A DNA stretch of 24,000 nt from Acaryochloris marina S15 (GCF_018336915.1 NZ_CP064923.1:5305551-5329550); one strand, 5' to 3'; positions 10,571 through 24,000 are shown, counted from the first letter of the stretch. The notes: generated by a model not told the origin, from the letters alone. Numbers and translations are program-made.

Positions 10571-11560
10571 TCAGTCTGTGGAATTTGTTTGGACAACTTC
10601 TCTTACCCGGTAGATAGGGCGACTTTGCGACTCATGGTAGGTTCGCATTAAGAGCTCTGCTAACAATCCAATTGAAAAGAGCTGAATCCCTGTCAATAAA
10701 AGCACAGCGGATAAAATCAGCAAGGGGCGGTCGGCAATCCCTTCACTCAAGCCGTACTTTAAAAACACTAAATAGCCACCCGTCAAGACCCCTAAGCTAG
10801 TAAAGGTAATCCCCAAAAGCCCAAAAACATGCATGGGACGAGTTAAAAAGGTTTTCATAAAGGATACGGTCAACAAATCCATGACCACCCGGAAAGTCCG
10901 ATCTAGTCCATACTTGCTTTGACCAAATTGGCGGGCATGATGACGCACAGGCAGCTCCGCAATTCTGGCACCTTCAATAAAAGCTAACGCCGGTAAAAAT
11001 CGGTGTAATTCTCCATACAGGTTCATATCAGCAATCAGCTCTGCTCGATAGGCCTTCAGGGAACAACCATAATCATGCAGCTTAACTCCTGTAATCCACC
11101 CAATCATCAAGTTGGCAATCTTAGATGGGAGCAAGCGCGTCAACGCAGCATCTTGTCGATCTTTACGCCAACCACTGACCAAATCGTATCCTTCATTCAT
11201 TTTGGCCAACAGCAATGGAATATCAGCTGGCTCATTTTGCAAGTCACCATCAAGGGTGACAAAAATCTCGCCGTGGGCATGGTTAAATCCAGCAGACATG
11301 GCAGCCGTTTGTCCATAATTTCGGCGCAACACAACTCCCCGTAGCCGGGGGTATAGATCCACTTGTTTTCTTAACAACTCAGTCGTACCATCTACCGAGC
11401 CATCATCTACACAGATTATTTCATAATTGACCTGAGTATCATTTAGGGTATCTGAAATCCTACAAATGAGATGCTCCAGGCTTTCGACCTCATTATAGAT
11501 GGGGATAATGACCGATATTTCGGGCTGAGTGATCTTGGCTTTTTGGTCTTGCATTAGCAT
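10571..11560 (-). CDS. family 2 glycosyltransferase, polyprenyl-phosphate sugar synthase type (ArnC/GtrB/DPM1-like)
   Basis: The N-terminus has ISVIIPIYNE...VDDGSVDGT and the DxD-type motif is LDGDLQNEP. Two C-terminal TM helices (VFGLLGITFTSLGVLTGGYLVFL and LLILSAVLLLTGIQLFSIGLLAELL) are typical of GtrB/ArnC. Confidence 0.85.
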   Translation of the reverse strand: MLMQDQKAKITQPEISVIIPIYNEVESLEHLICRISDTLNDTQVNYEIICVDDGSVDGTTELLRKQVDLYPRLRGVVLRRNYGQTAAMSAGFNHAHGEIFVTLDGDLQNEPADIPLLLAKMNEGYDLVSGWRKDRQDAALTRLLPSKIANLMIGWITGVKLHDYGCSLKAYRAELIADMNLYGELHRFLPALAFIEGARIAELPVRHHARQFGQSKYGLDRTFRVVMDLLTVSFMKTFLTRPMHVFGLLGITFTSLGVLTGGYLVFLKYGLSEGIADRPLLILSAVLLLTGIQLFSIGLLAELLMRTYHESQSRPIYRVREVVQTNSTD

Positions 11561-11837
11561 TGGTAATTTTATCTCACTCGCTATTCATTAACTCACTTCA
11601 GAGGACTTCATTCAAGAAAACTGCCAAGAACGGTATTTAGAGCATTTTTCGCAACTCAACGACCCAGATAAAGCTCAAATACCTTCTATAACTAACATTA
11701 TTTAGGACCAATACTCGCCTCTTCTAGAAGGTAAACTTGGGTAAAATACTTGAGTGCTAAATTCTTAGCAATACCAAATAACGTTCATTAAAGCCTTTTT
11801 ACCTGAAGGCCTAACACCTTTAGTATTAGAGAACCAC

Positions 11838-12422
11838 ATGAGGATTCTACTCTTAGCTCCACATCCATTTTTCCAGACCCGTGGTACACCGATCGCAGTT
11901 GATCTTATGCTCAGAGTGCTATCAGAGAGGGGAGATCAGGTTGATATGCTGACTTTCCCAGAAGGGGATGATGTTGTCTATGACAACGTGCGGATCTATC
12001 GGACTCCTAAATTACCATTTATTAAAAATATCAGTCCAGGTTTTTCTGGGAAAAAACTGGTCTGTGATGGTTTTATGCTGATCCAGGCTATTAACCTCTG
12101 TTTGAAGTATAAATATGATATCGTCCATTCGGTTGAAGAATCGGCTTTTATCGCGTTGGTTCTTAAAGTCGTGTTTAGAACACCCTATATCTATGATATG
12201 GACTCATCCCTGGCACAGCAAATGATTGAGAAATTTTCATTTCTCTCGTCTTTGCGCTTTCTCTTCAATGCTTTTGAAAGACTGGCCGTCCAACAAGCCA
12301 AAGTGGTGATACCTGTTTGCGAAACCTTATCTGAAGATATTCAAGTCTACAAACCGAAGCGAGTGGTTGTTTTACCAGACATTTCGCTTTTAGATTACTC
12401 TGCCCCGAATAAAAAGGCATAA
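11838..12422 (+). CDS. GT4 (GT-B) glycosyltransferase, N-terminal-domain half only
   Basis: The 194-aa product MRILLLAPHPFFQTRGTPIAVDLMLRVLSERGDQVDMLTF is typical of the GT4 acceptor domain. It ends where the inter-domain linker is expected. Confidence 0.7.
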   Translation: MRILLLAPHPFFQTRGTPIAVDLMLRVLSERGDQVDMLTFPEGDDVVYDNVRIYRTPKLPFIKNISPGFSGKKLVCDGFMLIQAINLCLKYKYDIVHSVEESAFIALVLKVVFRTPYIYDMDSSLAQQMIEKFSFLSSLRFLFNAFERLAVQQAKVVIPVCETLSEDIQVYKPKRVVVLPDISLLDYSAPNKKA

Positions 12423-12444
12423 CTGATGAATAGAATCATCTGCA

Positions 12445-13092
12445 GTGACGAAATCTCACCCGTCCAATATGGATAATATCAACGAAAATATCAGAGAGCA
12501 CTGTCAGCCTGATGAGCTCATTCTGATGTATGTCGGTAATTTAGAGCTTTATCAGGGGATTGATTTGCTGCTGGATGGCTTTAAAGTAGCTCAGAATCTT
12601 GCTCTTAATGTCCCTTTAAAGCTCGTCATTATCGGCGGTAAAGATGGCGACATTGCAAAATATAAGTTAAAAACGAAAAATATCGGCATTGACCACCAAG
12701 TTTTATTCTTAGGGCAACGCTCGGTAGAGAATCTAGGGTACTATCTCGCCCAAGCAGACATCCTGCTCTCTCCTCGCATTAAAGGAAGAAATACGCCAAT
12801 GAAATTGTATTCTTATCTTGATAGTGGTAAGCCCGTCCTCGCCACTGATTTGCCAACGCATAATTGGGTTCTGGATAATGAGGTGGCAGTGCTCAGTGCG
12901 CCTAACCCAGAAGCGTTTGCCCAGGGAATTATCCACCTAGCCAACCATCCTCAAATTAGACAAACCCTCGCAGTCGCCGCCAAGAAAATGGTGCAACAAA
13001 GGCACTCATTTTCTGCTTATAAGCAGCAGCTCAATAGCTTATATGATTCATTACAGTTAGAGTTCAACAATGCTGCCTCAATTGATCAATAA
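12445..13092 (+). CDS. GT4 (GT-B) glycosyltransferase, C-terminal nucleotide-sugar-binding half only
   Basis: LILMYVGNLELYQGIDLLL...ADILLSPRIKGRNTPMKLYSYLDSGKPVLATD matches the Glycos_transf_1 donor-binding domain. The start is GTG 12445 or ATG 12469. The frame differs from the N-terminal half. Confidence 0.7.
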   Translation: MTKSHPSNMDNINENIREHCQPDELILMYVGNLELYQGIDLLLDGFKVAQNLALNVPLKLVIIGGKDGDIAKYKLKTKNIGIDHQVLFLGQRSVENLGYYLAQADILLSPRIKGRNTPMKLYSYLDSGKPVLATDLPTHNWVLDNEVAVLSAPNPEAFAQGIIHLANHPQIRQTLAVAAKKMVQQRHSFSAYKQQLNSLYDSLQLEFNNAASIDQ

Positions 13093-13135
13093 TATGCTCT
13101 ATTTTCAGCCAAAGCGTTAGGATGCCACTGGTTTT

Positions 13136-14845
13136 ATGCAACGAAATCTAGAGGAATTATCCAACACTAAATTTGACGTCTTAGTCATAGGCGGCGGCAT
13201 TTATGGGGCTTGTGTTGCCTATGAAGCAATCCTAAGAGGCTTATCCGTTGCTTTAGTCGAAAAACAAGATTTTTGTGGGGCGACCTCAGCTAATAGCCTA
13301 AAAACCATCCATGGTGGCCTGCGATATCTACAGCATGCTGACTTTAAGCGGATGCGAGAGTCTATTTATGAGCGGCGCACATTAATGAAAATTGCGCCTC
13401 ACCTCGTGCATCCCCTGCCTGTGTTGGTGCCGACCTATGGGCATGGATTGAAAGGCATAGAAGCGATGACGGTGGCACTAAAAATTAATGATTGGGTGAG
13501 TTGCGATCGCAACCACGGATTGCCCGATCCTCAACAACATATCCCGGCTGGTCGAACAATATCTGCGACCGAATGCCTACAGACCATGCCAGGCATTTCC
13601 GCAGATGGCCTCACTGGGGGAGCTATTTTCCACGATGCTCAAGTGTTCAATTCAGAGCGGTTAGTGCTTGCCTATTTACAGTCTGCGACTCAGCTCGGGT
13701 TACAAGCTGCCAACTATCTTAAAGTCACTGATTTTTTACAAGATGGAGATACCATCCTTGGCGCTCAAGTGACGGATGCTCTAACTCAAAACACCTTTGA
13801 TATTCAAGCCAAAACAATCATTAATACCAGCGGGCCATGGATTAATGAAGTCCTGGGATTGCTAGATCAACCTCCTTCCTCTCATCAGCCCTTTGCATTA
13901 GCCATGAACCTAGTAACCCGATCGCTATTTGATCATGACTATGCCGTCGGTATCTATAGCAAGACTGACTACACAGATGAAGATGCCATTCTAAAGCGCA
14001 AGAACCGATTACTCTTTATCGCACCTTGGCAAGGGTGCTCTTTAGTGGGTACAACCTATTCACACTACTCTGATACCCCCGATCATTTATCTATACCCCA
14101 GCATGAAATCCAACACTTTTTGGATGACATCAACCATGCCTATCCACTCGCCAATCTAACGGCTCAGGATGTTTATTGGGTGCATCAAGGTCTACTCCCC
14201 AGCAGCCACTCCCCAGCAACCACTCATGTCCAATTAACCAAGCATTACCACATCCAAAATTATCAAGAAGAAGGCTTAAATGGCCTCATCTCCGTCACCG
14301 GAGTTAAATATACAACTGCTCGCAACGTCGCCATCCATGCAGTCGATACTGCAGCAGCGATGTTAAAGAGGCCAGTCCTTCCCTCTCAGTCTGCTCAGCA
14401 ACCCTTACATGGCGGAGCGATCGACAACCTAGATGACTTTTTGGACCAAGGGCATAACCAACTCAGCCGTATCCCTGATCATCCGTCTGTCCAGAATTTT
14501 CTCTACAATTACGGCACAGCCTATTCATCAGTTCTCAAACAGGTACAGCACGGGCAACGAGCAACGCCACGACTAGACCTTCTACAAGCACAAGTCACCT
14601 ATGCAATTGAGGAAGAAATGGCGCAAACCCTCAGTGACGTTATTTTTAGACGCACGGGTATCGGCGCTGCCCAAAAGCCTACCACTGCAGAGTTACAAAC
14701 TTGTGCAGATATTATGTCAAATACACTGTTATGGAATCAGTCTAGAGTAGAACAAGAGATCTCAGAAGTGACATCTAGGTGGTCTTGGTCTACTCCTAAA
14801 CCACCCTCTGTGGGGGAAAAAACAGCAACTATTCAGGGAAGATAG
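13136..14845 (+). CDS. FAD-dependent oxidoreductase of the glycerol-3-phosphate dehydrogenase/oxidase (GlpD/GlpO) family
   Basis: 569 aa. The FAD fold is FDVLVIGGGIYGACVAYEA and the GlpD-type motif is SANSLKTIHGGLRYL. ERRTLMKIAPHLVHPLP is also present. The substrate cannot be determined from sequence alone. Confidence 0.8.
   Translation: MQRNLEELSNTKFDVLVIGGGIYGACVAYEAILRGLSVALVEKQDFCGATSANSLKTIHGGLRYLQHADFKRMRESIYERRTLMKIAPHLVHPLPVLVPTYGHGLKGIEAMTVALKINDWVSCDRNHGLPDPQQHIPAGRTISATECLQTMPGISADGLTGGAIFHDAQVFNSERLVLAYLQSATQLGLQAANYLKVTDFLQDGDTILGAQVTDALTQNTFDIQAKTIINTSGPWINEVLGLLDQPPSSHQPFALAMNLVTRSLFDHDYAVGIYSKTDYTDEDAILKRKNRLLFIAPWQGCSLVGTTYSHYSDTPDHLSIPQHEIQHFLDDINHAYPLANLTAQDVYWVHQGLLPSSHSPATTHVQLTKHYHIQNYQEEGLNGLISVTGVKYTTARNVAIHAVDTAAAMLKRPVLPSQSAQQPLHGGAIDNLDDFLDQGHNQLSRIPDHPSVQNFLYNYGTAYSSVLKQVQHGQRATPRLDLLQAQVTYAIEEEMAQTLSDVIFRRTGIGAAQKPTTAELQTCADIMSNTLLWNQSRVEQEISEVTSRWSWSTPKPPSVGEKTATIQGR
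13503..13510. repeat. HIP1 octamer GCGATCGC
   Basis: Exact match read in the sequence. Confidence 0.95.
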
Positions 14846-14847
14846 CT

Positions 14848-15387
14848 ATGCCTTCTCCCATTGCGCACTCAGCAACTGCATATTTCCTATACAAAATCAC
14901 GCCCCAAAACAATCGCTCTATCCACTTAAACCGACATCGTTGGATTGATCTTGCCTACATCATTGTGATTGGAAACATCGCGGATTTAGACTTTATTCCT
15001 CATCTAATCTTAGAAGGCAGTTTTCATCGAGGTCCTTCCCATAGTCTCTGTATTGCCTTACTGATCAGTATAGGCTGTACCCTTATTTTCAAATGGCTCC
15101 ATCAATCAACCTTCCAACGATTGTTTTTACTCACGTTTGGAATCTATATCTCCCATCTTTTTCTGGATTTCTGGACAGCCGGGGGCTCTGGGATGAAGTT
15201 ACTTTGGCCGTTTACCAATGCTTTTATTAAATCGCCAATTGCTTTTTTTCCCAGTGTTAGGCATTCCGAAGGATTATTCTATCCAGGTCATATCGTCTTT
15301 ATGACCTTTGAGACCATTTACAGTGTCGTCCTGTTGGTATTCATTAATCGATATCAAAAATATAAACGACAGAATCAAAATACATAG
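14848..15387 (+). CDS. membrane-bound metal-dependent hydrolase, YdjM/YbcI (DUF457)-like
   Basis: 179-aa polytopic ORF with the motifs IAHS, HRGPSHS and HLFLDFWTAGGSGMKLLWPF. Its start lies 2 nt after the upstream stop, which suggests translational coupling. Confidence 0.7.
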   Translation: MPSPIAHSATAYFLYKITPQNNRSIHLNRHRWIDLAYIIVIGNIADLDFIPHLILEGSFHRGPSHSLCIALLISIGCTLIFKWLHQSTFQRLFLLTFGIYISHLFLDFWTAGGSGMKLLWPFTNAFIKSPIAFFPSVRHSEGLFYPGHIVFMTFETIYSVVLLVFINRYQKYKRQNQNT

Positions 15388-15422
15388 ACTCAAAAAAAAT
15401 ATTTAAACCCAGATAATACCTA

Positions 15423-16274
15423 GTGAATATGCACGACTCACAACCATCCCATATTCTTGTCGACGCCCATGTGCACCTGCATCACTGTTTTTCCTTACAA
15501 ACAGTGCTCGATTCAGCATTACAGAATTTCCAAGATAATGGCCAATACATAACGACCGGCTTACAGCATCAACTTGGGGTTCTATTCATCAATGAGATAG
15601 GGCACCAGAATTCATTTGCACAATTACGGGCAGACATATCTAACAAGCAAGCGATCACCCTTGATGACTGGACCTTAAACATCACACCTGAACAGGAATC
15701 ACTAGTCGCTCACCATTCCTCCAATCAGCAAATTCTGCTCATTGTAGGCCGTCAAATTGTTACCCACGAAAATATCGAAGTCTTATCACTATTCTCAAGT
15801 ACAACCATCCCAGAACAGCAATCCTTAGAGAAAACACTGCTAAATGTGAGTATGGCAGGAGGGTTAGCCGTCCTGCCCTGGGGATTTGGTAAATGGTTTG
15901 GTAAACGAGGCAAACTCGTGAATCAAGCGATTCAAGCCAGAGATCAAACTGAGATATTGATAGGCGACAACGGCAATAGACCCAGTTTTTGGATTAATCC
16001 AGTTTATCTAAATAAAGCTAAAAAAAAGGGCATCAAGGTATTACCAGGGACAGATCCCTTACCTTTAGCAACAGAAGTGCACCGTCCTGGGAGTTTCGGA
16101 TTCTACACCCAAGGGATCATTCAGGCCAACCATCCTGCAGCTTCTCTCAAACAAATACTGATCGATCCAAACACAAGCCTTCAACCCTATGGATCGCTGG
16201 AAACGCCATTTCGCTTCATTAATAATCAAATTCAATTTAGACTACAAAAGAAAAAACGCAACGCCGTTGAATAG
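15423..16274 (+). CDS. hypothetical protein, possible metal-dependent (PHP/amidohydrolase-like) phosphoesterase
   Basis: 283 aa. The N-terminal ILVDAHVHLH (DxHxH) and a later LPGTDPLP are reminiscent of PHP-type metal-ligand motifs. There is no firm family match. The start is GTG 15423 or ATG 15429. Confidence 0.35.
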   Translation: MNMHDSQPSHILVDAHVHLHHCFSLQTVLDSALQNFQDNGQYITTGLQHQLGVLFINEIGHQNSFAQLRADISNKQAITLDDWTLNITPEQESLVAHHSSNQQILLIVGRQIVTHENIEVLSLFSSTTIPEQQSLEKTLLNVSMAGGLAVLPWGFGKWFGKRGKLVNQAIQARDQTEILIGDNGNRPSFWINPVYLNKAKKKGIKVLPGTDPLPLATEVHRPGSFGFYTQGIIQANHPAASLKQILIDPNTSLQPYGSLETPFRFINNQIQFRLQKKKRNAVE

Positions 16275-16364
16275 TGTGTTCGAGCCCAAAACTGGTTGGA
16301 CCTGCAATCCCTGGAATTGCTGAACCAGATTCATTAGCTCAACCTCAAATGACAACACGCTAGA

Positions 16365-17144
16365 TTGAAAATCAGCCCGAGAAAACATAACGCTCTTTTA
16401 CTCATTAATCAGATGCAGCCGGAGAACAACTTTTTAGAAACAGCAGATATAGAAACATCTTCCGATGACTATGCTTCTCGTTTTCAAGGGCCTACAGGGG
16501 AGTGGCTGCTCCACGTTCAAGAGCAAGCCACCCTGTCTATGCTGACTCAATATCCCAACGCCAGCATTTTAGATGTGGGTGGAGGACATGGGCAGCTAAC
16601 CAAAGCCCTAATCAATAAAGAGTTTTCACTCACCGTTTTGGGTAGTAGCCTGTCTTGCCAAAACCGTATCAAAACTTATATTGACGCTGGACAGTGTGAG
16701 TTCAAGATGGGCGATGTTTTAAGCTTGCCTTACCCAGACAACGCCTTTGATATTGTGATTAGTTATCGGTTTCTAGCACATGTGAACCAGTGGCAAGCGT
16801 TCTTATCTGAGCTAGGGCGTGTTGCCAAAACAGCCGTGATCGTCGATTACCCCACCACTCGCAGCATTAACTACTTATCACCGTTATTATTCAAATTCAA
16901 AAAAGGCGTAGAGGGCAATACGCGAAAATTCATCTGTTACCAAGAGAAAGAGCTATTAGACTTTTGCAGCAGCATTGGGTTAGAGAAGGACAATCGTCAT
17001 CCACAATTTTTTTGGCCAATGGTTCTCCATCGAATGATGAAGCAACCCAAAGTCTCAGAACTCCTGGAGAATCCAGTGAAGAAGCTCGGTTTAACATACG
17101 TATGGGGCTCTCCAGTAATTACAAAATTCCAGAAAGTTCACTAA
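16365..17144 (+). CDS. class I SAM-dependent methyltransferase
   Basis: Motif I is ILDVGGGHGQ and the post-I/II region has FDIVISYRFLAH. The start is uncertain (TTG 16365 or ATG 16413). Confidence 0.8.
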   Translation: MKISPRKHNALLLINQMQPENNFLETADIETSSDDYASRFQGPTGEWLLHVQEQATLSMLTQYPNASILDVGGGHGQLTKALINKEFSLTVLGSSLSCQNRIKTYIDAGQCEFKMGDVLSLPYPDNAFDIVISYRFLAHVNQWQAFLSELGRVAKTAVIVDYPTTRSINYLSPLLFKFKKGVEGNTRKFICYQEKELLDFCSSIGLEKDNRHPQFFWPMVLHRMMKQPKVSELLENPVKKLGLTYVWGSPVITKFQKVH

Positions 17145-17201
17145 TCTATTCATTACTCGAATCCATCATTCATCTAACCATCAACATCCATTAAATACCG
17201 T

Positions 17202-18236
17202 ATGTCTTCAATAATGGCTCACGAGAACACAATCAGCCCTGGTCAACGTGTTTTAGTGACTGGTGCAACTGGCTATACAGGCAGCACCTTAGTCCAAAAA
17301 CTGCTGACCCAGAATGTAGAGGTTGTGGCGATAGCCCGCCAATCATCTGATCTAAGCCGTTGGCAAGATGCACCCATTCAATGGATTAAGGGAGATGTTT
17401 TTGATCCACGGCTTATTCAACAGGCGATGGAAGGAGTGAACTATATATTTCATATGGTCACCCCGTTTCGGGAAGCAAAGTCGTCTGATGATGTTTATTA
17501 CAATGTTCATGTTAAAAGTACACAGCTACTAGCGAAGGCAGCCTTAAACCAACCCGACTTCAAGCGCTTTGTCCATATATCGACGATAGGTGTCCATGGA
17601 CATATCGAAAATCCTCCTGCTGATGAGAACTATAGAACTTCTCCTGGAGATTTATACCAATCCACCAAATTAGAAGGCGAAATATGGATCAAGCAATTTG
17701 GTGCTGAAACTGGACTACCCGTAACCATCATCAGACCGGCAGGCATTATTGGGCCTGGTGAAAAACGGCTGTTAAAAATATACAAGATGGTTTGTTCTGG
17801 CTTGGTACCAGCCATTGGTAATGGGAGTAATCTTCTGCATTTAATTCACGTCGATGATTTGACCAACTGTTTTCTGCTGGCCTCTCAACATCCGAATGCA
17901 GTGGATGAAGTCTTCATTTGTGGAAATCAAGAATCGATTTCTTTCAAAGAAATGGTCAATTTGATCTCCGCGTGTTATCAGAAAAAAGCCACTCTTCTAC
18001 CACTCCCAGCTGCGCCCTTATTCCTATTGGGAGACATGCTTGAGTTTATTTGTAAGCCTCTAAATATTGAGCCTCCCATTTACCGTAGAAGACTTGCCTT
18101 TTACACCAAAGATCGTGCATTCAATGTTAACAAGCTTAAATCGAAACTAGGTTTTGTGCCGCGACATTCCAATGAGCAGTGTGTTGCTGAACTAGCACAA
18201 TGGTATTTACAAGAAGGGTGGACAACAGTTAGCTAA
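17202..18236 (+). CDS. NAD-dependent epimerase/dehydratase (extended SDR)
   Basis: The Rossmann motif is VLVTGATGYTGSTL and the catalytic YxxxK is YQSTK. At 344 aa the length is typical of sugar-nucleotide epimerases/reductases. Confidence 0.85.
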   Translation: MSSIMAHENTISPGQRVLVTGATGYTGSTLVQKLLTQNVEVVAIARQSSDLSRWQDAPIQWIKGDVFDPRLIQQAMEGVNYIFHMVTPFREAKSSDDVYYNVHVKSTQLLAKAALNQPDFKRFVHISTIGVHGHIENPPADENYRTSPGDLYQSTKLEGEIWIKQFGAETGLPVTIIRPAGIIGPGEKRLLKIYKMVCSGLVPAIGNGSNLLHLIHVDDLTNCFLLASQHPNAVDEVFICGNQESISFKEMVNLISACYQKKATLLPLPAAPLFLLGDMLEFICKPLNIEPPIYRRRLAFYTKDRAFNVNKLKSKLGFVPRHSNEQCVAELAQWYLQEGWTTVS

Positions 18237-18327
18237 ATTCATATCAATAGAAAAAGATTATAGCCAATATTACTCAAATATAATCCTCAGGAATCAGTTC
18301 AATAAACGTAAAACAATATATTTTTTA

Positions 18328-20184
18328 GTGATGCTAGATGCTGATATAAAGTCTCAACTAAGAGAAGCTCAGACTCAAACTGATATTTCTATAATATTGA
18401 GGAATATTCACTCCACAGACTTGTCAAGCTCAGATTACTTTTTTATTAGTAGAGTACTGAACAAAAAACATTCTGAATCTTGTTTAAAAATCGCCTACTT
18501 TTCGAATTACACGATTGTTCCTCTGCCTTCTTTTATTGAAGTACAGAGCGCTTTTCATAATATTGAAGTTAGGAGCTATATAGGAGAGTACAATCAGCAC
18601 TATCAGGAAATACTAAATCCCAATTCATCAGCTTTAAGCTTCAGCCCTGATATCGCTTTCTTACTCTTATCTCTACATGAGCTATGCCCTTCTATCCTGT
18701 ACAGTTTTACAAGCCTTACTAATCAGCAAAAACTAGATCAAAAAAACATTATTCTGGAGCATATCTTTAACTGGGTCAATCTCACTATAGACAAAACGAG
18801 TGCTACAGTTTTTGTCAGTGACTTCTTACAACCCACTTTTCCATCTCTTGGAATCGCGGATAGCCAGCAAAGTTATAGCGAACATGAATTCTATATTGAG
18901 CTAAATCTAGCCTTAAAAAAAGAATTTAGAGAAAATCCTAGAGTCTATGTTATTGATATAGATAAGTTAGCTTCCAGATATGGAAAAGAAGATGCTGTAA
19001 ACTCCAAAATGTTTTTTATGGCCAAAGTTCTTTGGCATGAAAAATTTTTACCCACAATTGCTCAAGAGATCATTCGATATCTCACCAGTTATTTGGGTCG
19101 AACTAAAAAATGTTTAGTTTTAGATCTTGACAACACATTATGGGGTGGAGTGGTTGGTGAGGAGGGAATAGAAGGCGTAAAGATTGGCAATGGCGATCCT
19201 ATTAGCGAAGCCTATCTTGCTTTTCAATATAAAATTTCTGCTTTGAAAAACCGAGGCATAATTCTTGGTATATGCAGTAAAAACAATCAAGCAGATGCTT
19301 TAGAAGTCTTTGACAAAAAAGTCGAAATGCCACTAAACATTCAAGACTTTTCAGCAATCGAAATCAACTGGGAACCCAAATATATCAATATCAAGAACAT
19401 CGCTCAGAAGTTAAATATTGGAACTGACAGCATCGTCTTTATTGACGATAATCCTGTAGAGTGTAGTCTTGTTTCTCAAGCACTTCCTGAAGTAACAACT
19501 GTCCAATTACCGAAAGACCCAGCTCTTTACGCTGATGTCCTCGACAAAATTCTTGTATTTGAAAAGTTTAATATCCTAAGCGATGATCTCAACAAAGTAC
19601 AGCAGTATTCGCAAAATGAACAGCGTAAAGAAGAGAAAGAACGAATCGGAGATCTCAACTCTTATCTACATAGCTTAGAGACGAAAGTTAAAATCTGCTT
19701 AGCTGCCGATCAAGATTTACCAAGGGTTCACCAACTCTTTTCTAAAACGAATCAATTCAACCTAACCACTATTCGTTACTCGATGTCCAACATTGAGGAA
19801 TTTCATAAGAATGAGCATGATTCGATTATAATTACCTCTGTTCAAGATAAATTTGGCGATTTGGGCACTGTAGGATTATGCTTACTCAAAAACCAAGAGC
19901 ATCAACTCCTGATTGACAGCTTTATACTGAGTTGTCGGGCGATGGGACGCGGCATTGAGACAGCATTGCTCAACTACATCAAGCGAGAATATCTTTTAGG
20001 TGACCGGTCGCTAAAGCTCATAGGGTCTTACATTCCCACAAAAAAGAACATTCCGACTAGAGACTTTTTAGAATCGCAAGGATTTGTTCTAGTATCAAAA
20101 GGTACTCAGGGAGAAAAATATTATGAGGTGCACTCCGATGATGCATTAGAAGTCTCTTGTCCCTGGATTAACATTATTGATTAG
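18328..20184 (+). CDS. FkbH-like HAD-IIIC family protein (N-terminal unknown domain + HAD phosphatase domain + C-terminal GNAT-like/FkbH domain)
   Basis: The HAD motifs are LVLDLDNTLWGGVVGEEG (I), ICSKNN (II) and K...VFIDDNPVE (III/IV). The C-terminus has TNQFNLTTIRY and ILSCRAMGRGIE. The likely start is ATG 18331. Confidence 0.8.
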   Translation: MMLDADIKSQLREAQTQTDISIILRNIHSTDLSSSDYFFISRVLNKKHSESCLKIAYFSNYTIVPLPSFIEVQSAFHNIEVRSYIGEYNQHYQEILNPNSSALSFSPDIAFLLLSLHELCPSILYSFTSLTNQQKLDQKNIILEHIFNWVNLTIDKTSATVFVSDFLQPTFPSLGIADSQQSYSEHEFYIELNLALKKEFRENPRVYVIDIDKLASRYGKEDAVNSKMFFMAKVLWHEKFLPTIAQEIIRYLTSYLGRTKKCLVLDLDNTLWGGVVGEEGIEGVKIGNGDPISEAYLAFQYKISALKNRGIILGICSKNNQADALEVFDKKVEMPLNIQDFSAIEINWEPKYINIKNIAQKLNIGTDSIVFIDDNPVECSLVSQALPEVTTVQLPKDPALYADVLDKILVFEKFNILSDDLNKVQQYSQNEQRKEEKERIGDLNSYLHSLETKVKICLAADQDLPRVHQLFSKTNQFNLTTIRYSMSNIEEFHKNEHDSIIITSVQDKFGDLGTVGLCLLKNQEHQLLIDSFILSCRAMGRGIETALLNYIKREYLLGDRSLKLIGSYIPTKKNIPTRDFLESQGFVLVSKGTQGEKYYEVHSDDALEVSCPWINIID

Positions 20185-20196
20185 GATAAATAAGTT

Positions 20197-20436
20197 ATGG
20201 CTAAAAGTGGTGTCCAAGAAAGAGTTAAACTGGTTTTTTCTGACGTTCTAGACATCGATCTGCAAACAATTTCAGATGATCTTGGCCCTGACAACTGTGA
20301 TAGCTGGGATTCTATGAATAATCTACGGCTCATTACAGCTTTAGAAGAAGAGTTCAGTATTAATTTCTCAATGGAAGAGATCTCTTCAATGGTTGATATT
20401 AGCCGTGCAATTGAGCTAATTGAAAGCAAAAGCTAG
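20197..20436 (+). CDS. acyl carrier protein
   Basis: 79 aa and acidic. The phosphopantetheine attachment motif is WDSMNNLRLITALEEEF (DSxxxL). The gene starts 12 nt after the FkbH-like stop. Confidence 0.85.
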   Translation: MAKSGVQERVKLVFSDVLDIDLQTISDDLGPDNCDSWDSMNNLRLITALEEEFSINFSMEEISSMVDISRAIELIESKS

Positions 20437-20472
20437 ATAGCGCTTATTCAATCCTCAGATTTGACCTAATAT

Positions 20473-21024
20473 GTGATTTTCAAGGACTATGCTGTAATGG
20501 ATGCTGGTAAAATTGTCCGTAGGTTTTTAGTTCCATCACCTGCAATTACCCTATATTATCTAATAAAGTTTGGGGCTAAAATCAGTCCTAAAGCTGAGGT
20601 TGAACTCAGTTCATTTTTCACAATTGGTCGCCAATCTGTTATCAGTTCATTTACTAAGATTAAGGCATCTGAAGGGCCACTAAAAATTGGTTCACATGTT
20701 TCTATTTCAACGGGATGCTTTATCAGTTCCCATACGGGTGGACTTGAAATTGGTGATTACTGCTTAGTGGGTCCAAATGTAACAATAGTAGGCAATAATT
20801 ATAACTATAGTAAAATTGATGTTCCCTTAGAACAACAAGGAATTATATCTAAAGGAATTAGGATTGGTAGCAATGTTTGGCTAGGTGCGGGTGTATGCGT
20901 TCTCGATGGAGTCACAGTCGGAGATAATTGTATTATCACCCCTAATTCAGTTATCTCGTCAAATATTCCTTCCGGTGCGATCGCAAGTGGGCAACCAGCT
21001 AAAGTTATTTTTAAACGTAGGTAG
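20473..21024 (+). CDS. hexapeptide-repeat (left-handed beta-helix) acyl/acetyltransferase
   Basis: Tandem hexapeptide repeats are present: IGDYCLVGPNVTIVG, IGSNVWLGAGVCVLDGVTVGDNCIITPNSVI. This is WcaF/LacA-like. The start is GTG 20473 or ATG 20497. Confidence 0.85.
   Translation: MIFKDYAVMDAGKIVRRFLVPSPAITLYYLIKFGAKISPKAEVELSSFFTIGRQSVISSFTKIKASEGPLKIGSHVSISTGCFISSHTGGLEIGDYCLVGPNVTIVGNNYNYSKIDVPLEQQGIISKGIRIGSNVWLGAGVCVLDGVTVGDNCIITPNSVISSNIPSGAIASGQPAKVIFKRR
20977..20984. repeat. HIP1 octamer GCGATCGC
   Basis: Exact match read in the sequence. Confidence 0.95.
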
Positions 21025-21217
21025 TGCGCTACAGAGAAATTGCGGTTCGGCAATATCAAATTCATTTCTATCATCACTCTTTTCTGCGATCTAGACTCAT
21101 TCTATTAGTTCCAATATCAGTTGCAATAGGCTAGGTAATTTACCCAAAAAATCTATTATTAGATTCACGAAATATGAAGAATTTATATCAAGTTTCTTTA
21201 TCCTCTAAGTTATTAGT

Positions 21218-22216
21218 ATGTACTCATCTAGCATAAGAAATACTAATCCTATTTTCATCTTCGGATCGGCACGATCAGGAACTTCTTTATTGAGTCGAAT
21301 CATTAATTCTCACCCTAGAATTTCAGTTCCATTTGAATCTCATTTATACGACACTTTTTATCCCTGGCTGAAGTATTACGGCGATTTAAATCTCTCTAAA
21401 AATAGAGAACGCTTAGTCGATGATATTTTAAGTATTGAATGCATGAGAGATTGGAGTCCTAGACCTGGTCGAGAATGTGTTTTAGCAGCAGTCTCACAGA
21501 ATAATTTTGCTGGTATCGTAGATGGATTAATCCGGTCATGGTCTATCAGCCAGGGGAAAAAAAGATGGGGAGAAAAAACACCAGCGCATGCCTTTTTTTG
21601 GCGTGAGATCTTAAATGATTTTCCTAATTGCAAGGTTATTCACATCGTGCGTGATGGCCGCGACTCATCCTTGTCTTTAAAAAATGCTCGTTTTGGCCCC
21701 AAACATTATTATCATTTAGCAAAAGTATGGGTGAAATATTTACAGGTTATTGAAAGCTTAAAATCCAAGATAAATAGTAGCTCTTTTTATGAGATACGCT
21801 ACGAAGATTTGTTGTCTAATACCAATGCTAAATCTAGAGAGATATGTGATTTTCTTGAGGAAGATTTTTCTGAAGAAATGCTCAGTTTCTATAACAATAA
21901 TAATCCATATCCAACTGACAAAGATAATCTCAAAAACCTAGCGAAACCTATCATATCTAGCAATTCCAATAAATGGAAGAGTAGTATGTCTCCTAGAGAT
22001 ATAAGAATATTTGAGTCAGTCGCTGGTCCTTATTTAGAGGCATATGGTTATGAAACAGTAATGAGTCATCCTACAATCTCTTCTATAGAAGAGTGGTTAA
22101 TTAAGTATTTTGAGCATCCTCCCAAAAAGATTTTATCTATGATCAAGAATAGGAAAGGTCATATTGATGGTTTGCGTAGGTTAGCTATTTATACTCGTCT
22201 TGTTATTACTCAATAG
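21218..22216 (+). CDS. PAPS-dependent sulfotransferase family protein
   Basis: The 5'-PSB loop is IFGSARSGTSLL and the 3'-PB motif is HIVRDGRDSSLS. Length is 332 aa. Confidence 0.8.
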   Translation: MYSSSIRNTNPIFIFGSARSGTSLLSRIINSHPRISVPFESHLYDTFYPWLKYYGDLNLSKNRERLVDDILSIECMRDWSPRPGRECVLAAVSQNNFAGIVDGLIRSWSISQGKKRWGEKTPAHAFFWREILNDFPNCKVIHIVRDGRDSSLSLKNARFGPKHYYHLAKVWVKYLQVIESLKSKINSSSFYEIRYEDLLSNTNAKSREICDFLEEDFSEEMLSFYNNNNPYPTDKDNLKNLAKPIISSNSNKWKSSMSPRDIRIFESVAGPYLEAYGYETVMSHPTISSIEEWLIKYFEHPPKKILSMIKNRKGHIDGLRRLAIYTRLVITQ

Positions 22217-22289
22217 TGTTATGCCCGTCATATATTACTGTTGTGTTTTTGAAACATTGAGATTTAAAAATATATACTGAATAACAAGA

Positions 22290-23780
22290 ATGAGTAAGTT
22301 CATTAAGGGCGCTGGTATTTCATTTATTGGGCAACTAGGAAGTACTGGCTTAAAATACCTCACCCAAGTTACTCTAGCCTGGATTTTTGGAGCTGAAGTG
22401 TTTGGTTTATACACCCTGGGTCTCGTTTTCTATCAATTTTGTGACTTATTTGCTCGGTTAGGCTTAGAGTTTGGAGCTGTACGTTATGTTGCCATCAACA
22501 CGACTGCAGAAAGCCGCCCCAACTTAAAAGGGGTTCTACTGACCATACTAGGTCTCCCATTCATATTCGGATGTGTTCTTGGAGGCATACTATTTTATTG
22601 GTCTAGTTTTATTGCCACCGATATTTTTCAAAAACCAGACTTAGCTGTTGTTCTACAGATATTTTCTCTCGCTATACCTGTCGGCGCTAGCATGACCACA
22701 GGCTCGTTTGCAACAACAGGGTTTCAAACTACTTTATATAGAGTCTTAGTATTTGACTTAATTGTGCCATTCACCAATCTATTCTTCGCGATTGGTTTAG
22801 GGCTAATTGGATTCAAGCTATTGGGAGCATCCTTAGCTTGGTTAATAGCATTAATAGTTGGTTTAATACTTATTTTTTATTTTATTTGCAATCTATTTCC
22901 AGATATTTTTTCAAGCAAAGTAAAGCCAGTTTTCAATCTAAAAGAAATCCTTAGTTTCTCTTTACCATTATCTTTTGGAACATTTGTTTGGTTACTTTTA
23001 ATTTGGACTGATATCTTGATGCTAGGCTACTATAGCAGCGCATCAGAAGTCGGGATCTATCGAGCTGCTTCACAAACTGCTTTTTTGATGATCCTTTTTG
23101 ATCGTTCTCTCATCACAATTTTTGTGCCTACAATTGCAAGCTTATTTAATCAAGAGAAACTGTCAGAGGCTAATCAACTATATACAACTTCTACTCGTTG
23201 GAATTTTATCCTAACTTTACCGCTGTTTATCATACTAACTATTTCTAGCCAACATATACTCAAAATTTATGGCTCTGATTTTCAATCTGCATGGATGATT
23301 CTAATTATCTTGGCAACAGGACAATTAACAAGATCAGGGGGCGGTGGCTTATGCATGCATATGTTAGCCATGTCAGGAAACCAATATTTAAAGCTATATG
23401 GTGATATTGCTCTAGCCACTACAAATATAACACTTAATTTTTTGCTCATTCCCTTATGGGGACCACTAGGAGCATCTATTGCTACTGCTTCTAGCATGGC
23501 TGGAATTAATTTAGTGCGCGTGATTCAAGTCAAGTACGTTCTAGGAGTTTATCCATATTCATTTCGTGATTTCAAACTCATTATTTGTGGTGTAGTGGCT
23601 GCTTTGTCTGGCGTCTTAATTCAGTATTTTTTGCATGACATATTTTATTTACTGCTAATTGCAATATCTGCACTTGTCATGATTATTACATACAGCCTGA
23701 TTCTTTTTTTTACAGCACTCAATGAAGATGACAAACTACTTATCAATCAGTATAAAATAAAGCTTAAAAACTTTCTATAA
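22290..23780 (+). CDS. wzx: Wzx-type oligosaccharide/polysaccharide flippase (MOP superfamily)
   Basis: 496 aa with about 12-14 hydrophobic segments. The N-terminus MSKFIKGAGISFIGQLGSTGLKYLTQVTLAWIFGAEVFGLY is typical of Polysacc_synt proteins. Confidence 0.75.
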   Translation: MSKFIKGAGISFIGQLGSTGLKYLTQVTLAWIFGAEVFGLYTLGLVFYQFCDLFARLGLEFGAVRYVAINTTAESRPNLKGVLLTILGLPFIFGCVLGGILFYWSSFIATDIFQKPDLAVVLQIFSLAIPVGASMTTGSFATTGFQTTLYRVLVFDLIVPFTNLFFAIGLGLIGFKLLGASLAWLIALIVGLILIFYFICNLFPDIFSSKVKPVFNLKEILSFSLPLSFGTFVWLLLIWTDILMLGYYSSASEVGIYRAASQTAFLMILFDRSLITIFVPTIASLFNQEKLSEANQLYTTSTRWNFILTLPLFIILTISSQHILKIYGSDFQSAWMILIILATGQLTRSGGGGLCMHMLAMSGNQYLKLYGDIALATTNITLNFLLIPLWGPLGASIATASSMAGINLVRVIQVKYVLGVYPYSFRDFKLIICGVVAALSGVLIQYFLHDIFYLLLIAISALVMIITYSLILFFTALNEDDKLLINQYKIKLKNFL

Positions 23781-24000
23781 GATGAAATTTGCGAAAGAAA
23801 GAATACTATTTCAACAGTACTAATTCAAGAAGCCAGCAACTAAGATAAGTTGTGACAAGGAATGACTTCTATCCCTTATCGGGTAGTTTTATTATATGCT
23901 TTCGCTCATGAGCAAGTCTCAAAATATCTTTTGAATCATTGATTAAATACTTCCTGGTTAGTTCACCGTATAAATTGAGTCAATAGCACAACATAAAGCG

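Follow-up and report, generated by a model that had tools for sequence, protein, structure and literature searches.

Three adjacent genes occupy positions 18328-21024 of the window, the 24,000-nucleotide stretch of Acaryochloris marina S15 DNA that was analysed. They encode an FkbH-family enzyme, a dedicated acyl carrier protein (ACP) of 79 aa and a short left-handed beta-helix (LbH) acyltransferase. The ORF calls agree with the first-pass annotation of the sequence, which had placed three genes at exactly these coordinates, and the family matches of the proteins lie far beyond chance. The same annotation had given the intergenic gaps as 12 and 36 nt; the ORF positions stand, except that the second gap is probably longer. 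Counted from GTG 20473, the LbH ORF (20473..21024, + strand) specifies 183 aa. Since the homologues have 175-176 aa, translation probably starts at ATG 20497, so that the ACP and LbH genes are separated by 60 nt rather than 36. The FkbH ORF (18328..20184, +) specifies 618 aa if counted from GTG 18328, and ATG 18331 is the probable start because database homologues have 617 aa.

Around these genes lies a base cassette that is found in other cyanobacteria and consists of a GT4 glycosyltransferase, a GlpD-like protein, a YdjM-family protein, a PHP-like protein, a methyltransferase, an SDR and a Wzx flippase. In the window, the GT4 glycosyltransferase (11838..13092, +) is present as two ORFs, the N-terminal half at 11838-12422 and the C-terminal half at 12445-13092, each recognised by Pfam; it is one fused gene in the related loci L085 and L171. 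It is followed by a GlpD-like FAD-dependent oxidoreductase with the Pfam domains DAO and DAO_C (13136..14845, +), which scores 248 bits against the NCBIfam glycerol-3-phosphate dehydrogenase model, under the cut-off of 360, and by a YdjM-family inner-membrane metal-dependent hydrolase (14848..15387, +; Pfam PF04307, 62 bits). The next gene (15423..16274, +) encodes a 283-aa protein that has no Pfam or NCBIfam family match and whose 590 homologues are, every one, annotated as hypothetical. Its AF2 model (pLDDT 89.8) matches PDB 2anu and 7rty in Foldseek, the residues D14, H16 and H18 are invariant, and the protein is predicted to be a PHP-type metal-dependent phosphoesterase. A class I SAM methyltransferase (16365..17144, +; Pfam Methyltransf_11/25) and an extended SDR of the epimerase/dehydratase type (17202..18236, +; Pfam Epimerase, 117 bits) complete the upstream part; the SDR is syntenic and 64-66% identical in L171 and L085. 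Downstream of the LbH gene are a sulfotransferase (21218..22216, +; Pfam Sulfotransfer_3/1, 103 bits) and a Wzx-type flippase (22290..23780, +; Polysacc_synt, Pfam PF01943, 79 bits), the latter a sign that the glycan of this locus is made by a lipid-linked, Wzx-dependent pathway. An ArnC/PgfS-like GT2 of the polyprenyl-phosphate sugar transferase type is encoded on the opposite strand (10571..11560, -; NCBIfam NF007986, 230 bits, under the cut-off). Neither an aminotransferase nor a deacetylase, either of which would suggest an amine as acceptor, is encoded in the window, and the acceptor cannot be named. Past position 24000 the source contig encodes an RGL11_C/FG-GAP protein, a Crp regulator and a dynamin-like protein, and an orthologous A. 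marina locus resembles it in this region.

The FkbH-family enzyme and its carrier protein

The FkbH-family enzyme (18331..20184, +; 617 aa) consists of an FkbH_N domain, a HAD-IIIC phosphatase domain and a C-terminal domain of GNAT fold. It scores 288.4 bits with TIGR01686 (cut-off 146.65; model positions 2-320 of 323) and 78.9 bits with the HAD-IIIC model TIGR01681 (cut-off 35.75). The N-terminal region of about 250 aa, which had been considered unassignable, is FkbH_N (Pfam PF21211; 36.2 bits vs 27, E = 8e-9) and matches the structure of B. fragilis BF1531 (PDB 3SLR; E = 2e-58, TM 0.85). In Foldseek the AF2 model (pLDDT 89.9) matches 3SLR, MDP-1 and, with its C-terminal domain, GNAT folds. 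The HAD motifs DLDNTLW (19123-19143), CSKNN (19273-19287) and FIDDNP (19438-19455) correspond to D266-L-D268-N-T, S317-K-N and D373-D374 in the 618-aa numbering. They are followed by TNQFNLTT (19747-19770) and ILSCRAMGRGIE (19924-19959), which includes the SCR motif (S535-C536-R537, same numbering) with the TGT codon of the cysteine at 19933-19935. The first-pass annotation would have been refuted by a HAD nucleophile or an SCR cysteine that is not conserved, which is not the case: across 77 relatives the HAD motifs are 99-100% and the SCR motif 100% conserved. All motifs also align with those of the FkbH-like protein encoded in a tetronate cassette of Streptomyces (L169), to which the enzyme is 28% identical over 553 aa.

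The ACP (20197..20436, +) is matched over its full length by NCBIfam ACP models (E = 3e-7), with scores under the model cut-offs; Pfam PP-binding yields 18.4 bits, under the gathering score of 20.8. The phosphopantetheine is predicted to be attached to Ser39 (codon 20311-20313) in W-D-S-M, a modification that has not been shown. W37-D38-S39 is conserved to at least 90% across 61 FkbH-neighbouring ACPs, and genes for AcpS phosphopantetheinyl transferases adjoin FkbH-ACP in four related loci. The linkage of the two genes is observed far beyond the window, as an ACP adjoins FkbH in 74 of 82 loci of bacteria and archaea.

At least 593 relatives are among the matches listed in one genome scan. A survey of related loci for PKS versus glycan context yielded glycan-type neighbours, namely glycosyltransferases, Wzx, deacetylases, sulfotransferases and sugar dehydrogenases; none of 80 related loci, drawn from many phyla of bacteria and archaea, has core motifs of KS, AT or NRPS A domains within 10 kb on either side. 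A full-text literature search retrieved FkbH solely from PKS/NRPS papers, except for a passing mention of C. jejuni cj1302. The first-pass annotation had supposed FkbH-ACP pairs in polysaccharide loci to be widespread but biochemically uncharacterised, and these results support it. Its statement that neither a PKS nor a methoxymalonyl set is present also holds, both in the window and in the 10 kb past it. A methoxymalonyl-ACP pathway was rejected because the window and the 10 kb downstream contain no FkbI acyl-CoA-dehydrogenase-like, FkbK 3-hydroxyacyl-CoA-dehydrogenase-like or FkbG O-methyltransferase gene and no PKS; the only methyltransferase there is the class I Methyltransf_11 enzyme. A tetronate operon was rejected as well, since the FabH-like KAS III, the E2-like acyltransferase and the alpha/beta hydrolase, which the Streptomyces comparator L169 does carry, are absent here and from the 80 related loci.

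It might be argued that the module serves some product other than a glycan (a lipid head group, for instance, a small molecule, or a polyketide whose partner enzymes are encoded elsewhere) and lies in a glycan locus only incidentally. All biochemically characterised FkbH enzymes serve PKS/NRPS pathways, and the GC content of the module is foreign. Arguing against this possibility are the lack of KS, AT, C and A domains in the window, the 10 kb past it and the 80 related loci, the linkage to glycosyltransferases, Wzx and deacetylases, which persists across phyla, and the fact that the module positionally replaces an acyltransferase of the polysaccharide type, as described below. We consider it very unlikely.

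The LbH acyltransferase and its position in cyanobacterial cassettes

The short LbH acyltransferase (20497..21024, +; 175 aa; Hexapep PF00132, 59.7 bits vs 27) belongs to an ACP-linked subfamily whose profile matches 147 LbH structures in the PDB. Its members are 55-66% identical across phyla, and many share contigs with FkbH homologues. The gene directly follows that of the ACP in L007, L008, L011, L017, L085-L087, L088, L089, L090, L091 and L093; L011 contains FkbH, ACP and LbH, but as overlapping high-GC ORFs. L090 has the ACP and no FkbH within 5 kb, and the subfamily member in L092 is accompanied by neither. Of 67 generic LbH proteins used as controls, one has FkbH nearby and none an ACP.

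The protein falls outside LpxA/LpxD (LpxD models 42-45 bits, LpxA 32, cut-offs 207-242) and, at equivalog level, outside the WbbJ-type and maltose/galactoside O-acetyltransferases (WbbJ NF007240, 83.6 bits vs 243). The catalytic His of the maltose/galactoside acetyltransferases, expected in the loop that precedes the C-terminal coils, is missing: it aligns with the invariant Tyr102 of the subfamily, which leaves the chemistry of the LbH protein unclear, and no His is invariant anywhere in the subfamily.

The cassettes L170 and L171 retain GT4, GlpD, YdjM, PHP, SDR and Wzx but lack FkbH, and at the position of the FkbH-ACP-LbH genes of the window each encodes a single WcaF/WbbJ-like LbH protein of 257-265 aa. 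The identity between L171 and the window equals that of the FkbH-containing Okeania locus. FkbH, ACP and short LbH therefore look like the content of a swappable acyl-decoration slot. The methyltransferase does not belong specifically to the FkbH module, because the FkbH-less L171 has it too, with 60% identity. Exactly at the SDR/FkbH junction the GC content falls from about 44% to 36%, from which it is inferred that the FkbH block is a separately acquired segment.

In other loci the carrier protein is joined covalently to an acyltransferase. L052 encodes FkbH-ACP-GNAT as a single polypeptide and L071 an ACP-GNAT fusion, which indicates an acyltransferase as the recipient of the ACP-bound unit. 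The proposal of the first-pass annotation, removal of this unit from the ACP by the hexapeptide transferase, is supported by three independent comparative findings, i.e. the ACP-tied LbH subfamily, its exchange for one longer LbH and the FkbH-ACP-GNAT fusions, but it is unproven, and the functional unit exceeds three genes.

The LbH protein could nevertheless be an ordinary acetyltransferase, because by sequence it is closest to the acetyl-CoA-dependent maltose/galactoside/WbbJ O-acetyltransferases and retains their C-terminal, CoA-binding segment; WbbJ, WcaF and the maltose/galactoside enzymes come out best in family and structure comparisons. FkbH and ACP would then still make glyceryl-ACP, the LbH protein would O-acetylate a sugar or the glyceryl hydroxyl with acetyl-CoA, and the ACP would be off-loaded by the GNAT domain of FkbH, a glycosyltransferase or an unlinked enzyme. 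The LbH proteins in the same slot of the FkbH-less cassettes are probably acetyl-CoA-dependent, and the acyltransferase of the tetronate cassette acetylates a glycerate-derived hydroxyl (PMC7489565). Arguing against this are the missing catalytic His and the specificity of the subfamily for ACP neighbourhoods, in which none of the generic LbH proteins occurs. Moreover, the LbH protein is the one transferase that minimal loci, L086 and L087 among them, always contain, and the ACP of other clades is fused to a GNAT acyltransferase. This alternative is unlikely.

The sulfotransferase and the nature of the acyl group

The sulfotransferase is a probable accessory of the FkbH module; whether its target is the sugar or a glyceryl hydroxyl is undetermined. 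It has the same low GC content as the FkbH block and is missing from L170 and L171. Orthologues, 53-65% identical, directly follow the FkbH-ACP-LbH(-MaoC/KR) block in L087 and the ACP-LbH genes in L088, a short contig that does not reach any FkbH gene. FkbH-ACP has a sulfotransferase beside it in 11 of 80 loci, compared with 1 of 73 controls. These counts are not independent, since 10 of the 11 positive loci are from Acidobacteriaceae.

Another gene that might act on the acyl group is a MaoC-dehydratase/ketoreductase fusion, which occurs in 22 loci, lies between ACP and LbH in most close relatives and is absent from the window. Its position suggests that the group transferred in these loci, and perhaps ancestrally, may be lactyl-like. 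PIG-L or polysaccharide deacetylases adjoin the transferase in many related FkbH-ACP loci.

The transferred group may differ from plain glycerate, either because FkbH uses another acyl phosphate or because the ACP-bound glyceryl unit is tailored, by sulfation as in the 2-O-methylglyceric acid 3-O-sulfate of suomilides or by dehydration and reduction to lactyl in the MaoC/KR relatives. The MaoC/KR fusions and the sulfotransferases behind the module in L087 and L088 would fit such tailoring. On the other hand, the methyltransferase is a base cassette gene that occurs without FkbH, the MaoC/KR fusion is missing here, the sulfotransferase count rests largely on one family, and in cyanobacterial exopolysaccharides the sugars are commonly sulfated. 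A precedent is provided by NRPS loading modules of the type OMT-FkbH-PCP-ST, proposed to make methylated, sulfated glycerate (PMC10143770, PMC13122637). Neither the acyl group nor the acceptor is settled; a sulfated glycerate is conceivable, and a group other than plain glycerate appears doubtful on present evidence.

Proposed route and relation to known systems

In the model that we favour, with a probability of roughly 0.6, the LbH protein delivers an ACP-bound unit of the glyceryl type to a glycan, the three genes forming a self-contained module in a Wzx-dependent locus. Family assignments, intact catalytic residues, linkage of the genes, lack of PKS genes and the natural exchange for one acyltransferase are observations; the steps that follow are inferred, and biochemical evidence exists for none of them. 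FkbH would take a phosphorylated C3 acid, inferred from family precedent to be 1,3-bisphosphoglycerate, bind it as a thioester on Cys536 and remove the phosphate with its HAD domain (Asp266/Asp268). The glyceryl group would then pass to the phosphopantetheine arm at Ser39 of the adjacent ACP, a loading that is likewise inferred. Using this thioester instead of a CoA thioester, the 175-aa LbH protein is presumed to attach the group to a sugar, at either a hydroxyl or an amino position. The inferred acceptor would be built by the surrounding cassette, the sulfotransferase may sulfate the sugar or the free glyceryl hydroxyl, and Wzx would export the decorated product, whose final chemical structure can only be surmised.

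The loaders of the FkbH/OzmB/Tmn16 type belong to the same family and share FkbH_N, the HAD-IIIC DxDxT, the C-terminal SCR cysteine and a discrete ACP immediately downstream, but in the window the partner is an LbH protein in a Wzx-dependent glycan locus, and the tetronate, FkbG/I/K and PKS partners are missing. LpxA and LpxD are LbH enzymes with acyl-ACP donors and exemplify the proposed principle, the movement of an acyl group from a carrier protein to the O or N of a sugar; the LbH protein studied here lies outside their family, and a C3 hydroxy-acid on a dedicated ACP would replace a fatty acid on the housekeeping AcpP. In the ACP-dependent N-acylation of an oligosaccharide by NodF-NodE/NodB/NodA, a specialised ACP provides an unusual acyl group after de-N-acetylation, a parallel to the related FkbH-ACP loci with deacetylases, although the enzyme families are unrelated and the window encodes no deacetylase. 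The rfb O-antigen locus of V. cholerae O1 contains a dedicated ACP, and 3-deoxy-L-glycero-tetronic acid N-acylates perosamine. There too an ACP in a glycan locus carries a short hydroxy-acid for a sugar, but the acid is activated by enzymes of the ligase/reductase type and not by an FkbH phosphatase-transferase. The flagellin of C. jejuni bears pseudaminic acid modified with di-O-methylglyceroyl. To our knowledge, no role of cj1302 has been demonstrated biochemically. This FkbH-domain gene is located in the flagellin glycosylation locus (PMC7099621) with ACP genes nearby, as in the loci described here; the sequence relationship was not compared. The OMT-FkbH-PCP-ST modules of the suomilide/varlaxin aeruginosins are cyanobacterial and combine FkbH-loaded glycerate with a sulfotransferase (PMC10143770, PMC13122637). 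They differ in that the domains are fused in an NRPS and the unit caps the N-terminus of a peptide, whereas the proteins of the window are discrete and no NRPS is present.

A more far-reaching and rather improbable proposal is that FkbH, ACP and short LbH, with or without the sulfotransferase, form a mobile, swappable cassette that converts ordinary surface-glycan acetylation into addition of a glycerate-derived, possibly 3-O-sulfated substituent. If so, the sulfotransferase would act on the glyceryl hydroxyl, as in the Mgs unit of suomilide, and a strongly anionic sulfo-glyceroyl polysaccharide would result. LbH, GNAT or MBOAT transferases together with deacetylases would then explain glyceroyl and lactyl substituents of bacterial and archaeal glycans for which the genes have yet to be identified, for example the N-glyceroyl of Tannerella Pse5Am7Gra.

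Glyceroyl, methylglyceroyl and lactyl groups decorate bacterial surface sugars, among them pseudaminic and legionaminic acids, and exopolysaccharides, and they shape antigenicity, phage recognition and the charge of the polymers. Few of the genes responsible for adding them have been identified; in Tannerella forsythia, a candidate gene for the N-glyceroyl group "remains elusive" (PMC6120980). The FkbH-ACP-LbH module offers a specific candidate: three proteins suffice to reconstitute it, its relatives occur across many phyla of bacteria as well as in archaea, and the sister cyanobacteria with a plain acyltransferase in its place offer a ready natural comparison. Its proposed chemistry is in part known from antibiotic pathways, but no biochemical test of the widespread use of this chemistry in glycan loci is known. 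If the favoured mechanism is true, the carrier-protein strategy of antibiotic assembly lines would extend to the tailoring of glycans, and the module would supply parts for the engineering of charged or functionalised polysaccharides.

The FkbH-type enzyme, its carrier protein and the acyltransferase

The first-pass annotation placed here three consecutive ORFs, encoding an FkbH-family enzyme (protein 1, 18328-20184, +), an ACP (protein 2, 20197-20436, +) and a left-handed beta-helix (LbH) acyltransferase (protein 3, 20473-21024, +). These coordinates match the ORF listing, and every motif it quoted was found, including the Cys codon at 19933-19935. Because the homologues of protein 1 consist of 617 residues and those of protein 3 of 175-176 residues, the ATG codons at 18331 and 20497 are probably the true starts, as judged by sequence comparison. 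With the revised starts the intergenic gaps amount to 12 and 60 nt; the 12 nt originally given stands and the 36 nt is probably 60 nt. An 82-aa antisense ORF at 20181-20429, opposite the ACP gene, is merely a product of mechanical ORF listing. A promoter and terminator scan of 11000-24000 gave counts at or near chance.

Protein 1 scores 288 bits against the curated TIGR01686 FkbH model (cut-off 147) and also passes the HAD-IIIC model. Its N-terminal region, left unassigned in the first-pass annotation, is the Pfam FkbH_N domain, which together with the HAD domain matches PDB 3SLR, a structural-genomics entry of B. fragilis BF1531 (E = 2e-58). The PDB contains no full-length FkbH structure. An AlphaFold model built from 21 homologues (pLDDT 89.9) predicts three domains, with FkbH_N plus HAD resembling 3SLR (TM 0.85), an MDP-1-like HAD core and a C-terminal GNAT fold. 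Protein 1 is 28% identical over 553 aligned residues to the FkbH-like protein of a canonical tetronate cassette on a Streptomyces plasmid, and the alignment spans the N-terminal domain and all catalytic motifs; that cassette contains KAS III, FkbH-like, ACP, E2-like and alpha/beta hydrolase genes. Residues D266, D268, S317, D373/D374 and S535-C536-R537 are 99-100% conserved among 77 full-length relatives, which bears out the expected conservation of the HAD nucleophile and the SCR cysteine. The ACP matches Pfam PP-binding weakly, below the gathering score; NCBIfam ACP models align with it end to end, and 61 FkbH-adjacent ACPs show at least 90% conservation of W-D-S39.

The best matches of protein 3, a hexapeptide beta-helix acyltransferase, are WbbJ, WcaF and the maltose/galactoside O-acetyltransferases, all below the equivalog cut-offs. 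The subfamily in which it falls is tight: its members are 175-176 aa long and 55-66% identical across Cyanobacteria, Acidobacteriota, Gammaproteobacteria, Geminicoccaceae and others, and many of them share a contig with close FkbH homologues. With one exception, members with sufficient flanking sequence lie directly after an ACP gene, and usually also downstream of FkbH (nine loci); the exception, L092, has an SDR-LbH arrangement. A metagenome scan seeded with the subfamily alignment picked up, owing to generic hexapeptide patterns, for the most part distant LbH genes. Among these, taken as a negative control, FkbH was present in 1 of 67 loci and an ACP in none of the 67. In a further exceptional locus (L090, 6631-7531) an ACP is followed by a subfamily member (53% identity) without FkbH within 5 kb upstream. 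A degenerate FkbH upstream of this pair was searched for and not found, and the upstream ORFs, which have no Pfam match, could encode an alternative loader that serves this pair.

At the position of the catalytic His of maltose/galactoside acetyltransferases, the subfamily has an invariant Tyr102 (within N-N-Y-x-Y), and the subfamily alignment contains no invariant histidine. The exchange was considered as a signature of ACP use and rejected, as Tyr is also found in the LbH protein of an FkbH-less locus (L171) and His in that of another (L170). The conserved N-terminal segment RRFLVP...K of the subfamily has no counterpart in solved relatives.

FkbH-ACP pairs and the absence of polyketide synthases

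A scan of species-representative genomes yielded at least 593 FkbH relatives, of which 80 loci were examined with 10-kb flanks on either side; they represent many phyla of bacteria as well as Thor- and Promethearchaeota, Nitrososphaerales and Nanoarchaeota. An ACP ORF adjoins FkbH in 74 of 82 loci. Recurrent neighbours are GT4/GT2 glycosyltransferases, Wzx flippases, UDP-glucose dehydrogenase, polysaccharide and PIG-L deacetylases, sulfotransferases, AcpS, MaoC hot-dog dehydratases with or without a FabG-type ketoreductase, and asparagine-synthase-like and FemAB/GNAT proteins of the kind usually found in exosortase-type EPS loci. Core motifs of KS (DTACSS), AT (GHSxGE) and NRPS A3 were found in none of the 80 loci with their 10-kb flanks.

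The gene that follows the ACP varies, being LbH in about one-third of the loci and GNAT in others. In a planctomycete (Aureliella, L052, 1903-5157) a single 1084-aa polypeptide combines FkbH_N, HAD, ACP and GNAT, and a Verrucomicrobiia contig (L071, 11778-13139) has an ACP-GNAT fusion immediately 3' of FkbH. On pSymB of S. meliloti 2011 (622285-641586) the order is MBOAT, a 409-aa protein, a 687-aa FkbH-like protein and small ORFs; the MBOAT gene thus lies upstream, and Capsule_synth/ABC-2 capsule-export genes are situated a few kb away in a record that was unannotated here. Here the carrier-bound unit may be passed on through a membrane O-acyltransferase, which would make the locus a Dlt-like variant.

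Seven archaeal loci (Thor- and Promethearchaeota, Nitrososphaerales, Nanoarchaeota) contain FkbH-ACP pairs, which is notable given how rarely archaea have dedicated ACPs; genes for an AcpS phosphopantetheinyl transferase and a small MaoC hot-dog protein are often found beside these pairs. Eight Acidobacteriaceae loci display the fixed order (sulfotransferase/glyoxalase)-FkbH-ACP-372-aa protein; genes for a sulfotransferase, a FemAB/GNAT-like protein and UDP-glucose dehydrogenase come next, on the other strand. The 372-aa protein matches nothing in Pfam, does not resemble the GNAT partner in another comparison locus (L022), and may represent a new transferase family.

The proteins closest to those of the module are from Acaryochloris (83-100% identity). 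Beyond 24000 the source contig encodes an RGL11_C/FG-GAP protein, a Crp regulator and a dynamin-like GTPase, and the continuation on the A. marina chromosome comprises a transposase, a GT4, a polysaccharide deacetylase and a second flippase. Neither continuation contains a PKS, an NRPS or a methoxymalonyl tailoring set, any of which just beyond 24000 would have refuted the reading of the first-pass annotation that an ACP-tethered acyl unit is transferred to a sugar. Protein 1 belongs to the FkbH family, and the locus is neither a methoxymalonyl nor a tetronate system, since the defining partners of both were searched for and are absent.

A cassette with and without the module

The module sits within a conserved set of genes: upstream lie, in order, a split GT4, a GlpD-like flavoenzyme, YdjM, a 283-aa protein, a methyltransferase and an extended SDR, and downstream a sulfotransferase and Wzx. 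The cassette including FkbH-ACP-LbH also occurs in Okeania (L085), Calothrix, a Thioalkalispiraceae genome and two metagenome contigs. Neither FkbH nor ACP is present in Halomicronema (L170) or on a Limnoraphis-type contig (L171), where the gene after the SDR encodes a single WcaF/WbbJ-like LbH of 257-265 aa, which is 34-36% identical to that of the window over the shared core. The base cassette of the FkbH-less L171 is as similar to the window as that of the FkbH-containing Okeania locus: identities in L171 and Okeania, respectively, are 57% and 54% for the N-terminal and 54% and 53% for the C-terminal half of GT4, 52% and 53% for the GlpD-like protein, 45% and 43% for the PHP-like 283-aa protein, 60% and 63% for the methyltransferase and 64% and 66% for the SDR. 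In the simplest reading these loci share one acyl-decoration slot, which holds a single acyltransferase gene in some and a three-gene donor-plus-transferase module in others. GC content changes exactly at the SDR/FkbH boundary (about 18240-18330), from 40-47% in the upstream genes to 35-38% in the downstream genes FkbH, ACP, LbH, sulfotransferase and Wzx (GC3 25-34%). This sharp step suggests that the block downstream of the junction was acquired separately.

Two ORFs 22 nt apart (11838-12422 and 12445-13092) encode the N- and C-terminal Rossmann halves of GT4. Acaryochloris and Halomicronema share this division, and the halves are fused in Okeania and L171; the gene seems to encode a truly two-part enzyme, and the division does not look like a sequencing error. 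The 283-aa protein (15423-16274) belongs to no Pfam or NCBIfam family, and its approximately 590 homologues are all annotated as hypothetical. Its model predicts with high confidence (pLDDT 89.8) a PHP-type metal phosphoesterase fold, and D14, H16 and H18 are invariant. Wherever it occurs in glycan loci of cyanobacteria, gammaproteobacteria and planctomycetes, it is accompanied by a GlpD-like flavoenzyme and an extended SDR. The predicted fold and this constant company point to an undescribed pathway of sugar- or glycerol-phosphate modification.

A divergent GT2 (10571-11560, -) is of the ArnC/PgfS-like polyprenyl-phosphate sugar transferase type, and three related loci contain PMT_2/ArnT-like GT-C proteins, which hints that part of the pathway decorates a glycan on the membrane's outer face via a lipid-phosphate-sugar donor. 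The 825-aa product of 5793-8270 carries eight ELWxxDGT repeats and, after them, RTX-type calcium-binding repeats, and a TIGR03032-family protein (400 bits; 3834-4901, -) is encoded upstream of the glycan locus.

The acyl group and its proposed transfer

In most close relatives a MaoC-dehydratase/ketoreductase fusion is encoded beside the module, mostly between ACP and LbH. In some PKS loading modules the MaoC/ketoreductase logic converts the FkbH product to lactate (PMC7901079). The fusion is absent from the window, so glyceryl is the default acyl group. The sulfotransferase travels with the module, with orthologues of 53-65% identity directly 3' in L087 and L088. Sulfotransferases were found near FkbH in 11 of 80 loci and in 1 of 73 controls; a single family contributes 10 of those 11 loci, so that the enrichment counts only as weak evidence. 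Cyanobacterial NRPS modules with the order OMT-FkbH-PCP-ST were proposed to make 2-O-methylglyceric acid 3-O-sulfate (PMC10143770, PMC13122637). By analogy with these modules, and given the company of the sulfotransferase, a sulfo-glyceroyl substituent is possible and remains unproven. A role of the methyltransferase as glycerate O-methyltransferase, in analogy to suomilide, was rejected, as the same gene (60% identity) occurs in the FkbH-less L171; it is a gene of the base cassette and is no evidence for glycerate methylation.

In the proposed mechanism FkbH would load a glyceryl unit from 1,3-bisphosphoglycerate onto the ACP. This activity is inferred from family membership and the intact residues; the reaction is established for FkbH, OzmB and the tetronate enzymes (PMC7489565). 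The acyl group would then pass from ACP to LbH, an inference drawn from genetic linkage, the natural swap and the fusions. LpxA and LpxD are beta-helix enzymes able to use acyl-ACP, and oligosaccharide acylation by NodF/NodA/NodB depends on an ACP. No aminotransferase or deacetylase is encoded in the window and no acceptor was identified; in related loci, PIG-L or polysaccharide deacetylases suggest N-acyl replacement. Linkage, swap and fusions thus support the transfer envisaged at the outset as far as comparative genomics can, without biochemistry, and for the full mechanism, in which FkbH loads the ACP and LbH moves a glyceryl-type unit to a glycan, we estimate a probability of about 0.6.

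In full-text searches FkbH was discussed only in PKS/NRPS contexts, except for a passing mention of cj1302, an FkbH-domain gene in the flagellar glycosylation locus of C. jejuni (PMC7099621); most subscription journals were outside the scope of the search, and a biochemical study is not excluded. Within that scope, and with at least 593 relatives, the description of such pairs as widespread but uncharacterised holds. As late as 2018 the gene that installs the N-glyceroyl group on T. forsythia pseudaminic acid was described as elusive (PMC6120980). What is known is the loading chemistry; what would be new is its proposed widespread use, so far uncharacterised, in glycan tailoring.
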